NCBI RefSeq assembly: GCF_003334335.1
Contig: NZ_QOWQ01000065.1
Reading direction: 5' to 3' (one strand)
Length of the DNA stretch: 10,108 nt
Source of the DNA: Escherichia coli
Lineage (GTDB): Bacteria > Pseudomonadota > Gammaproteobacteria > Enterobacterales > Enterobacteriaceae
Positions 1 to 3,575 of this stretch are shown here, one piece after another. Under the pieces are notes generated by a model. That model was not told the origin of the DNA, searched no databases, and saw nothing but the letters and a program-made list of their open reading frames with translations. How positions within the stretch are numbered: position 1 is the stretch's first letter; every line of letters begins with the position of its first letter. Position numbers and translations under genes: made by a program.

Positions 1-1015
1 TCTGTACCCAGGTGGTGAACGGACTGTACGCCGTCCAGATATGGAATGTGATGGAGCGCGGCGGCGGAATTTCATTATCCGCGGCGCTGAAAAATGTCAG
101 ACCGTCACGAGTCCACATGCCCGTGTTTTCACAGATCCACCGCCCGTTACTCTGGTCAAGCTCAGACTGATGGATCACACAGCCATGATGCTCACAAAGG
201 TAGAAAACACTTTCTGGCTTATTCTTCTCCCACTTAAGACCGAAAGGCGAGGCATCATCGCCAAATTTCAGATACTGCTCCTCCCCACAGTGCGGACAGG
301 GCACATAAAAACGCATGAAATGTGCCGACTCGTTAGCGGCTTTTTCGATCTGGCAGGAGCCTTTGATTTTAGGCGTCGAGCCGCGAATGGATTTTGGCCA
401 TACCGAGCCCTCAATACGTTTATCCCCCAGCAGGGTTGGCGAACCCTCTTTTTCAACATCCGGTTCGAACGAGGAAAGCTCGTCATAACAAACCACATCC
501 ACGGATTTTTCACGGTAGTTTTTTGCTGCCGCTCCCCCCAGACACCAGAAACCCACACCGGAGGAAAAACGCTTCAGGGTGAGCGTATTATCGCGGTGTT
601 TTCTTCCGAACCATGGAGCCAGCTCCAGCAATGCAGGAACATCCCTTATCGTTGGCTCAACATGAGATTTCATAAAATCTTCAGCAGCTGAGTCCGTGGG
701 CTGAAAAAGAAGGCTGTTGCGTGATTTATGCTCAATAAAATAAGCCTCCACTCCCAGCAACATCTTTGTATAACCAACACGGGCAGATTTAATCAGGTTA
801 ACAGTGCGAATCAAATCGTTGCCCATACAGTTCATGATGCCAACCTGAAACGGCAGTGTTTCCCACCGCCCCGGGGTATAAGACGACTCTTTAGGAAGGT
901 AATAATGTTTATTGGCCCACTGAACTGTCGTCAGTGGAACAGGAATAATGAGAGATAAAAGCCCTGTAGCTATCGCACCGGCTGCATTAGCTGCCTTCTG
1001 TGCGTCTGAAATCAT
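1..1015 (-). CDS. A: Terminase large subunit (lambda gpA-like), partial: N-terminal ~338 codons, C-terminus beyond left edge
   Basis: Minus-strand frame is open from the ATG at 1015 to the window edge, so it has no in-window stop and is missing from the ORF track. My translation reads [13 protein letters not shown]...[27 protein letters not shown]...[14 protein letters not shown]...[16 protein letters not shown] recognise this as closely matching the N-terminal ATPase region of phage lambda gpA (recalled motifs ...VEWADANYYLPKES..., ...KSARVGYSKMLLGV..., ...[14 protein letters not shown]). The start overlaps the nu1 3' end by 29 nt, as in lambda. Confidence 0.9.
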
Positions 1016-1535
1016 CGATCCACCCGCCCACGTTTTCACCGGCCTTAGCTGCAACATTGGAGGCTTTCGCGATTTCAGTTTTCACCACATCAAGGTGTGA
1101 TGGTGAAATGTCCGGATATTTACGCTGTAATGTCAACGGCACACGCACAAGTATCCCCGAAATCTCCTGTGCCACACGTTGCAGAATGAAGGTAAACAGT
1201 TCAGTTTCCAGCACCACTCCGTCTTCACGGGCATTTTTCAGTTCCTGCGCATCTGCCTGCGCTTTTGTGAGCCGGTAGCGTTCATAGTCAATGGTGCCGG
1301 GTTGTAAATCTGACTCCGCTGCCGCACGCAAATCGGCCAGTTCTTTGCGGAGCTTTTCGTTTTCGATATCAGTTTCCCTCTGCGCATACCACTGAATTGC
1401 CATGGCAGTATCAAATACAGATTCAATGCCCTTACTGCCTTTGGAGACGCAAGGGAGCCCCTGAGACTGCCAGCGTTCAATCGTCCGCGGGTCCACGTTA
1501 AAAATTTCGGCAAGCCTCTTTTTATTAACCTTCAT
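987..1535 (-). CDS. nu1: Terminase small subunit (lambda Nu1-like)
   Basis: Track ORF 987..1559 (-). Protein shows an N-terminal winged-HTH-like segment ([24 protein letters not shown]), a P-loop-like GSKG, and ...[29 protein letters not shown]..., all recalled from lambda Nu1 (MEVNKKQLADIF...). Start chosen at the conserved MKVNKK (ATG at 1535); the track's upstream start at 1559 is possible but less likely. Confidence 0.9.
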
Positions 1536-1559
1536 AGAACAACCCATTATCAAATACAA

Positions 1560-1705
1560 GGCCCGACATGAAAACGCCAGAAAAAGGCATTTTCGGACAC
1601 TTTCATGTCGGACATTTATGAATGCAATATTAAAAAAAACAAAAAGTTATATTCGAGAAGTACCGACACGATTTTCCCTGAAAAATTTTCATAAATAGTG
1701 AAAAA
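1560..1705 (-). promoter_or_regulatory. cosB-like region (putative Nu1-binding R sites) between cosN and nu1
   Basis: Contains repeated and inverted copies of a GTCCGACATGAAAG / TTTCATGTCGG / GTGTCCGAAAA / GTGTCGGTAC motif family between cosN and the nu1 start. Position and repeat character match lambda cosB. Individual site boundaries are not resolved. Confidence 0.5.
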
Positions 1706-1710
1706 CCGCG

Positions 1711-1722
1711 AGGTCGCCGCCC
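1711..1722 (-). other. cosN cohesive-end site (12-nt GGGCGGCGACCT on the minus strand)
   Basis: Plus strand 1711..1722 is AGGTCGCCGCCC, the reverse complement of GGGCGGCGACCT, the lambda 12-nt cohesive end as I recall it. The minus strand continues ...CTCGCGGTTTTTCACTATTTATGAAAATTTTTC, nearly identical to the first ~45 nt of the lambda left end. It sits ~175 nt upstream of the nu1 start, the expected cos-Nu1 spacing. Confidence 0.8.
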
Positions 1723-1945
1723 CGTAACGGTCTGGATCACCGGAAAGGACCCGCCAACGACTTTCGCGTGCAGGCATTAAAAATTTTGCAGTTCCATGCC
1801 TAGTTGAAACCTCGATTTCTATAACATCCAATTTTGTAAATTTAGATATAGCTCAACTTTTCCCAATGTTTTCAAGTGTATAAAAACAATTGGCGTTACG
1901 CCATAACACTATACTTAGGATAAGTAAAGATTTTAAGGAGTTTTA

Positions 1946-3013
1946 ATGAGTCAACATCAATATTATCCACAGCTGAAATGGAAGCCTGCTGAATATGAAT
2001 CTCTGATGCTTTTAGATCAAACTACGCTCTCTGGTTTTACTCCGATCATTACCATTCCAGACATAGACTGGGATTATGAAAACGAATGCTACAAGAAGAG
2101 TTTGAGTTCTTACTTATCTGACTTCGGTATTAACCTTGCGGCATCCTGGAAAGCCAATCGTCCTGTTTTGCTGGATGTTAAATATTTAGATAAACATGGT
2201 TCGAGCCGCCATCATCCTCTAGATATGTGTATCCAAGATGCTAGAGTAAATGGTAAGGAAATTATCCCTGTTGTTTCTCCCGCATATTCAACAAACTATA
2301 TACATGCTGTTCAACGCAACTTAATCAATGGGCTCGCTATATCTATCCCCCCCCAGACATGGCACCAATTCACAAGTCTGGTTAACCACTTAAATATTCA
2401 TCCTAGTTTAATTGATGTAATCATTGATTTTGGAGATATTCAAAACGCAACTGATAGTTTAAAACAACAAGCATTAAGCATGGTCAACACATTATCAGGC
2501 CAAGCTCCGTGGAGAAACTTGATTTTATCTTCAACCGCATACCCAGCATCACAGGCAGGGATACCGCAACATCAAGTTCATCATATTCCGCGCCATGAAT
2601 ACGATCTTTGGATGTACGTAGTACAGAATTTTAGCAATGGAAGAACGCCAAGTTTTAGTGATTATCCCACCGCTAGCTCTACCATTACGAGCGTAGACCC
2701 ACGCTTCATGTCTCAGTATGTCTCAGTGAGATATTCGAACGATACCTCATGGATCTTTGTAAAAGGTACCGCAGTTAAAGGAAATGGATGGGGCCAAACT
2801 AAAAACTTATGTACTACCCTTGTTAGTTCGCCAGAGTATCAAGTCTTTGGTTCCAAATTTAGTTGGGGGGATGATTACATTTACCAAAGATCATTAGGCG
2901 CTAACAAATCTGGCGGCTCTAAAGAATGGCGTAAAGTTGCACATACGCACCATATTACGTTAGTCGTGAGACAGCTTTATTGGTTGGCGCAGACTCAGCC
3001 TGCCAAGCCTTAA
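1946..3013 (+). CDS. Hypothetical protein, 355 aa, cargo-island gene 1 (function unknown)
   Basis: Longest plus-strand ORF in the window. Strong SD (TAAGGAG at 1934..1940) about 5 nt before the ATG at 1946. Possible -10 TATACT at 1910..1915. Markedly A+T-rich codon usage compared with flanking phage genes. No motif I can assign to a known family. Confidence 0.75.
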   Translation: MSQHQYYPQLKWKPAEYESLMLLDQTTLSGFTPIITIPDIDWDYENECYKKSLSSYLSDFGINLAASWKANRPVLLDVKYLDKHGSSRHHPLDMCIQDARVNGKEIIPVVSPAYSTNYIHAVQRNLINGLAISIPPQTWHQFTSLVNHLNIHPSLIDVIIDFGDIQNATDSLKQQALSMVNTLSGQAPWRNLILSSTAYPASQAGIPQHQVHHIPRHEYDLWMYVVQNFSNGRTPSFSDYPTASSTITSVDPRFMSQYVSVRYSNDTSWIFVKGTAVKGNGWGQTKNLCTTLVSSPEYQVFGSKFSWGDDYIYQRSLGANKSGGSKEWRKVAHTHHITLVVRQLYWLAQTQPAKP

Positions 3014-3575
3014 CTTTCCAGCCTACGCGTTTCTTTAAGGCTGTTCTGACTTCAAGCCTGAGATTCGCTATTGGAATATTTTCCGCAATAATATTCCATA
3101 ACTCAAATCGGGGCTTGCTTTTGATTCCTTTGGAATAGCCCCATCGTTCAAGTACGTCGATACATTCATCTTTCCAAAGCAATTGAGCGAGCATCAATGT
3201 GTCATGGTTTCGATTAAGCTTTTCTCCACGCATGTGCTTTATAAGAATGGCGCCTTTTGGCCCAACAGAAACCGTTTTAACGCCCCACCAACCTGGGATT
3301 AACTTTAATGCTCCCTCAAGATGTTTCTCAGCTACGACAAGAGTAACCTTGTCCATTACAGAAGAATAATGCTTGATTTGAAGAGGCAAACGCTCCAAAG
3401 AGTCATATTCACTTTTGAGCTCGTACCCGTGTATAACACCATTTATTACAGCAATGTCTGCTCTACTGGCGCCAAGGGATATGGAAAATTCATCGACCAC
3501 AAGGCAGTCTGGATCTAAATGCGATTCTTTCAAAAGCTTATGATGCACCGCGAACCTAACATCTTGATCTTTCAT
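2955..3575 (-). CDS. Hypothetical protein, 206 aa, with PD-(D/E)xK-like nuclease motif; cargo-island gene 2
   Basis: Minus ORF with strong SD (AAGGAG, 5-nt spacer) before the ATG at 3575. N-terminal region VVDEFSISLGASRADIAVINGVIHGYELKSEYD has the E ... hD ... hExK spacing typical of the restriction-endonuclease-like (PD-(D/E)xK) fold. A+T-rich. Convergent with, and overlapping by 59 nt, the 355-aa gene. Confidence 0.75.
   Translation of the reverse strand: MKDQDVRFAVHHKLLKESHLDPDCLVVDEFSISLGASRADIAVINGVIHGYELKSEYDSLERLPLQIKHYSSVMDKVTLVVAEKHLEGALKLIPGWWGVKTVSVGPKGAILIKHMRGEKLNRNHDTLMLAQLLWKDECIDVLERWGYSKGIKSKPRFELWNIIAENIPIANLRLEVRTALKKRVGWKVKAWQAESAPTNKAVSRLT

Follow-up and report, generated by a model that had tools for sequence, protein, structure and literature searches.

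The window analysed here, a 10,108-nucleotide stretch of an Escherichia coli contig (NZ_QOWQ01000065.1, assembly GCF_003334335.1), is by its sequence part of an E. coli prophage of the lambdoid, phage 21 type. Over its full 10 kb, the window matches prophages in complete E. coli chromosomes at 99.9% identity, and the 1700 nt that comprise cos, gene 1 and the beginning of gene 2 share 98.0–98.4% nucleotide identity with coliphage 21, including records OL657228 and M81255, and its close relatives. All genes relevant to the junction described below sit on the minus strand, where they were read and translated from position 1700 down to 850 (Table 1).

The terminase operon has the composition of that of lambda. 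The product of the small-subunit gene (nu1, gene 1 of phage 21) belongs to the Phage_Nu1 family (Pfam PF07471, 2.4e-81, residues 1–163 of 182), carries that family's winged helix-turn-helix at its N-terminus, and matches PHROG 57, terminase small subunit (1.3e-65). Of the large-subunit gene (A, gene 2 of phage 21), the window holds the 5' part; the encoded N-terminal half is of the gpA family, carrying the ATPase domain (Pfam GpA_ATPase, PF05876, 2.4e-57, residues 46–293) and matching PHROG 15 (3.6e-186). The region for the C-terminal nuclease and portal-binding domains expected of this family falls outside, past the window start. Neither terminase protein has a curated family match in NCBIfam, and a sequence search of the PDB returned neither a relative of the gpA N-terminal half nor a structure solved for any gpA relative. 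In the 99.9%-identical chromosome NZ_CP093068, PGAP annotates a small-subunit CDS that coincides with window 987..1535 and an intact large-subunit CDS of 1929 nt that begins at window 1015. Of 5426 complete E. coli genomes, 663 contain the 131-nt junction between the two genes. Eight of the matches were sampled: seven coincide with annotations of both subunit genes, and the eighth is a partial match of 70 nt.

Immediately upstream of the small-subunit gene lies cos, made up of a 12-nt cosN, which also matches position 1 of the phage 21 record OL657228, and a homology-inferred cosB, whose sites were taken over from the protein_bind features annotated in OL657228 and M81255 (98% identical here). 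Because both an exact cosN and a phage 21-type cosB are present, the prophage keeps a packaging site that is complete and of phage 21 specificity. The packaging specificity is typed as that of phage 21, as opposed to lambda, by near-identity to phage 21 in cosB, gene 1 and the N-terminus of gene 2, whereas the small subunit is only 52% identical to that of lambda.

Between cos and the Rz lysis gene, the prophage carries a convergent two-gene insert. One of its genes encodes a “beta family protein” that matches PADLOC PD-Lambda-2_C (4e-32) and the other a “sce7726 family protein” that matches PADLOC “cll” (4e-31); we view the pair as a candidate moron for anti-phage defence. Upstream of the lysis cassette, the PGAP annotation carried over from a chromosome of 99.9% identity places three tRNA genes (Arg, Arg, Ile), a carbohydrate esterase of the SASA family and a DNA methyltransferase, a late-region layout that we take to resemble that of Stx-type lambdoid prophages.

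Table 1. Features of the terminase junction and its surroundings, in window coordinates
Feature	Positions	Strand	Remarks
Terminase large-subunit gene A / phage 21 gene 2, 5' part	1..1015	-	338 codons, no stop, continues past window start
Terminase small-subunit gene nu1 / phage 21 gene 1	987..1535	-	182 aa, ATG 1535, TAA 989..987
Dual-coding overlap	987..1015	-	29 nt counting the nu1 stop; +1 frame
Predicted stem, 3' arm UCG-A-UGAUUUCAG	1006..1018	-	holds the gene-2 AUG: A bulged, U and G paired
Shine-Dalgarno-like G-rich tract GGGCGGGTGG	1020..1029	-	5–14 nt upstream of ATG 1015, in nu1 codons G-G-W
Predicted stem, 5' arm CUGAAAUCGCGA	1067..1078	-	in nu1 codons T-E-I-A-K, about 52–63 nt upstream of the start; MFE and consensus fold
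In-frame TGA opening the gene-2 reading frame	1082..1084	-	by translation
cosB (R3, I1, R2, R1; terminase and IHF binding sites)	1557..1674	-	placed by homology, about ±1 nt
cosN cohesive-end sequence GGGCGGCGACCT	1711..1722	-	exact match to lambda cohesive end; left end of packaged genome
Convergent insert, one gene	1946..3013	+	
Convergent insert, other gene	2955..3575	-	
SASA-family carbohydrate esterase	6045..7898	-	
Three tRNA genes (Arg, Arg, Ile)	8874..9123	-	
DNA methyltransferase	9173..10102	-	

The overlap and the start of the large-subunit gene

The initial annotation had placed the gpA ATG at 1015, 29 nt inside the 3' end of nu1 and in a different frame, and had noted that this reading frame is missing from the list of open reading frames. 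Translation bears out both points. The ATG at 1015..1013 opens the gene-2 frame on the minus strand, and the mechanical list omits the frame because it leaves the window at its first position. As 1535 − 1015 = 520, gene 2 is read in the +1 frame relative to nu1. The shared bases 1015..987 code for the last nine codons of gene 1 and its stop (..DDFRRTEGS*) and for the first nine to ten codons of gene 2, with the gene-2 AUG set within two adjacent Asp codons of the small subunit, so that GAT GAT is also read as G ATG AT.

Taken alone, an out-of-frame ATG in the final 30 nt of a gene would be unremarkable. We judge the one at 1015 to be real because of homology, namely the Phage_Nu1 and GpA_ATPase families on its two sides and 72% identity of the large subunit to lambda gpA. 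The start is also well placed for initiation: predicted pairing of the 18 nt upstream with the 3' end of 16S rRNA reaches −10.2 kcal/mol, within the top 2.4% of positions on the same strand, and the phage 21 records mark a putative ribosome-binding site (GGGT) within the same G-rich tract.

Conservation was assessed in 80 related IMG/VR loci with 86–100% protein identity. An ATG stands at the gene-2 start position in 79 of the 80, and the 29-nt overlap with an ATG is found in 78. In the first of the two exceptions (IMGVR_UViG_2675903388_000004), the nu1 frame is broken near its 3' end, by a frameshift or an assembly error. The second (IMGVR_UViG_2531839666_000033) has a different N-terminal segment of gene 2 and a divergent nu1 (64% identical overall), a pattern that would fit a mosaic exchange spanning the junction.

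The locus is very probably a standard phage 21-type gene 1/gene 2 (Nu1/A) junction, at which the large subunit is started independently at AUG 1015 under the direction of a Shine-Dalgarno (SD) sequence. For annotation, the large terminase gene is to be called from ATG 1015 even when the edge of a window or contig cuts the reading frame.

Translation across the junction and a predicted RNA stem

Both terminase subunits would be read from one late polycistronic mRNA beginning at cos, and initiation at AUG 1015 would be directed by the G-rich SD tract that the Gly-Gly-Trp codons of the small subunit supply. Ribosomes translating nu1 would cross the site at which gene 2 is initiated and stop 26 nt past its AUG; because of this passage, translation of gene 1 probably affects initiation at gene 2. 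The overlap would in this way tie large-subunit to small-subunit synthesis by translational coupling and help to set the TerS2:TerL1 ratio, while an SD of this strength would also permit uncoupled initiation. Control of lambda terminase synthesis was reportedly examined in the Murialdo and Gold laboratories in the 1980s; the literature that we searched yielded no experimental data on the N-terminus of gp2 or on Nu1/A coupling.

In lambda and phage 21, the TerL-binding domain, and with it specificity, lies at the C-terminus of TerS, which interacts with the N-terminus of TerL, and the protomer is TerS2:TerL1 (PMC4669245; PMC9026076). The 29 nt of the overlap specify the very end of TerS and the very beginning of TerL. 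Since TerL binding lies in the TerS C-terminus, changes in the overlap alter both partner proteins at once.

Coupling is one reading of this arrangement. The overlap could also be a neutral outcome of compact gene packing that has no regulatory role, with gene 2 initiated independently from its own strong SD, and we consider this quite conceivable without favouring it. The SD at 1029..1020 is strong by itself, and the length of the overlap varies within the family: 26 nt in lambda, 29 nt in phage 21 and N15, and, as annotated in more distant members, 14 nt and 95 nt, the latter in VP58.5, where only a single start is possible. Nucleotide diversity in the overlap (pi 0.154) resembles that of the adjoining gene-2 sequence. 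In one subgroup, a 3-nt indel left unaligned raised the values of the upstream nu1 columns in this diversity test, and for that reason we drew no conclusion on dual-coding constraint. Against neutrality, the start inside nu1 and its embedding in the same acidic codon pair of the small subunit are kept from E. coli to Pseudomonas phages despite ∼50% protein divergence, and the phage 21 clade also has a predicted stem that occludes the start.

This stem, of 12 bp, is present in both the minimum free energy (MFE) and the centroid fold of the 131-nt junction, and RNAalifold recovers the same stem in related haplotypes. Its columns are paired in 97% of cells across 22 distinct haplotypes, compared with 15–45% in slid controls. 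Two pairs change on both sides, one from U-A to G-C and one from G-C via G-U to A-U, at sites that are synonymous in nu1; the observed covariation was reached by 1 of 500 shuffles, a control that can overstate support because the sequences are close relatives. We further compared the stem with synonymous recodings of nu1. The duplex energy is −16.2 kcal/mol, against −9.8 ± 1.8 kcal/mol in 1000 recodings, of which 0.3% reached it (p about 0.003), and the start region from −3 to +9 has an unpaired probability of 0.08, against 0.48 in 300 recodings, of which 0.7% reached or undercut it.

In the phage 21 clade, then, pairing of 1078..1067 with 1018..1006 might hide the AUG so that a nu1 ribosome must melt the stem for TerL to be made. 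The folds, the two covarying pairs and the recoding null all favour such gating. Several results weigh against it. The stem was spotted first and then tested on the same sequences, covarying pairs number only two, and the z-score from a plain dinucleotide shuffle is only −1.83. The recoding test is weak for 21-like subgroups of greater divergence, and in the L080 group two mismatches degrade the stem. Lambda, N15, Hali, CF67a and JBD68 show no signal beyond the synonymous-recoding expectation (p > 0.19 each), and these phages rule out a start-occluding stem as a general property of Nu1/A junctions. Given the negative test outside the clade and the modest z-score, we rate clade-specific, stem-mediated coupling as tentative and, on balance, rather unlikely.

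Gating by the stem may act on top of the overlap, as an addition to independent SD-directed initiation and not as a replacement for it. The stem is possibly the sole new element at this locus, the rest being known. If true, it would be a clade-specific, structure-based device that sets the TerS:TerL ratio through obligatory coupling of TerL synthesis to translation of the TerS gene, and a simple, testable case of a phage fixing the proportions of an enzyme's two subunits.

Alternative origins of the large-subunit N-terminus

Between the TGA at 1084..1082 and position 1015, the gene-2 frame holds three other start codons: ATG 1057, TTG 1054 and GTG 1039. Initiation at one of them would lengthen the overlap (to 71 nt from 1057 and 53 nt from 1039) and add 8–14 residues to the N-terminus of the large subunit, and no stop intervenes between these codons and 1015 in either the window or phage 21. 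We nevertheless regard an upstream start as very improbable. Predicted SD pairing at the three codons is negligible (−1.3, −1.3 and −3.6 kcal/mol, respectively), and none of them is annotated as the start in X02501, M81255, OL657228 or by PGAP. Relatives have lost them: the ATG is changed to ACG in the L050 group, and in 17 of the related IMG/VR loci the frame is interrupted by a TAG at −15, produced by a GTG-to-GTA change that is synonymous in nu1. This TAG cuts off the upstream codons and leaves only the ATG at 0 or a non-conserved TTG at −3 as the start; the ATG at −42 is also lost in this 17-locus group. In lambda and N15, an in-frame TGA stands directly before the large-subunit start codon, so that no upstream start is possible there. 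For the window and phage 21 themselves, judged from sequence, it is only through this comparison with relatives and through weak SD pairing that the upstream codons are excluded.

A start downstream of 1015 was rejected as well: the next 30 nt hold no in-frame start codon, and conservation with lambda begins by residue 15.

It is extremely improbable that a programmed +1 frameshift in the overlap, instead of internal initiation, yields the large subunit fused to the small one: geometry alone speaks for it, in that the +1 frame is open across the junction, whereas reading 987..1029 by eye revealed no slippery or shifty motif, a conserved ATG or GTG with an SD stands at the aligned position, any shift would be confined to the 26–29 nt of the overlap because the TGA closes the gene-A frame of lambda and N15 just before the start, and terminase subunits have been purified as separate polypeptides. 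Independent initiation at 1015, directed by the predicted SD, is the only reading that fits the comparative data.

Comparison with related phages, lambda, N15 and phage 21

The codon pairs in which the large-subunit start is embedded are GAT GAT in phage 21, AAT GAT in N15, AGT GAA in lambda, and GAT GAA or GAT GAG in the Pseudomonas relatives. Across the junctions compared, an SD-like G run is supplied by preceding Gly or Pro-Gly(-Trp) codons.

Among more distant members, Pseudomonas phage CF67a has a 29-nt overlap. The same length is obtained for Hali when counted from ATG 583 (23 nt as annotated) and for JBD68 if ATG 582 replaces the annotated TTG 636. The large-subunit start is probably annotated 6 nt late in Hali (PQ533658; 589 in place of 583) and 54 nt late in JBD68 (KY707339), where ATG 582 aligns with the family start. 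In the CF67a record (MK510970), the small-subunit ORF at 29..661 is unannotated and a minus-strand hypothetical is called in its place.

In lambda (NC_001416), nu1 occupies 191..736 and A occupies 711..2636, giving an overlap of 26 nt (711..736) and a GTG start. A nucleotide alignment of the junction with lambda produced a meaningless 4-nt gap, and the comparison was therefore made at the protein level. BLASTP aligns the window's Nu1 with that of lambda without gaps, residue 1 opposite residue 1, and gpA likewise without gaps, residue 15 opposite residue 15. Because both alignments are gap-free and keep the same numbering, ATG 1015 falls exactly on lambda GTG 711, and nowhere else is a gpA start indicated; this agrees with the start proposed in the initial annotation, which is also the one given in the phage 21 records and by PGAP. 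The large-subunit start thus lies inside the small-subunit gene at its 3' end and in the +1 frame, at the position of lambda 711, and the lambda start codon is set in the homologous Nu1 codon pair, as in the window. Counted from the small-subunit ATG, the large-subunit gene starts after 520 nt in the window, in phage 21 and in lambda alike. The initial annotation further held that the lambda Nu1/A overlap is reproduced here. This stands for the homologous arrangement and the aligned start, but not for its exact form, which in lambda is 26 nt with a GTG and not 29 nt with an ATG. The overlap is 3 nt longer in phage 21 than in lambda because phage 21 gp1 is one codon longer at its C-terminus. 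The lambda SD is also formed by G-rich codons but is weaker (−6.2 kcal/mol), and the overlap sequence itself is poorly conserved between phage 21 and lambda.

In N15 (NC_001901), genes 1 and 2 lie at 89..595 and from 567, with an ATG start, a 29-nt overlap and the +1 frame, as in the window. The N15 small subunit ends in ...QSGS* and has the same length as that of phage 21 in this part, but is shorter overall (168 aa).

The closest known system is phage 21 itself (X02501, M81255 and OL657228), in which gene 1 lies at 189..737, gene 2 begins at 709 and a putative ribosome-binding site is marked at 699..702. The overlap is therefore already known, being annotated in X02501, the phage 21 paper for which is said to be that of Miller and Feiss, published in 1985. 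Phage 21, to whose left end the window is 98.2% identical, shares with it the ATG, the 29-nt overlap, the +1 frame and the putative ribosome-binding site, and its three records are independent of one another. The window copy differs in being a prophage in an E. coli chromosome and in the accessory genes upstream of cos. Within the overlap, the only difference is at position 1001 (minus strand), where the window has A and phage 21 has G. The change is synonymous in gene 2 (GCA or GCG, Ala) and replaces residue 179 of gp1, Thr in the window and Ala in phage 21, a small illustration of dual coding.
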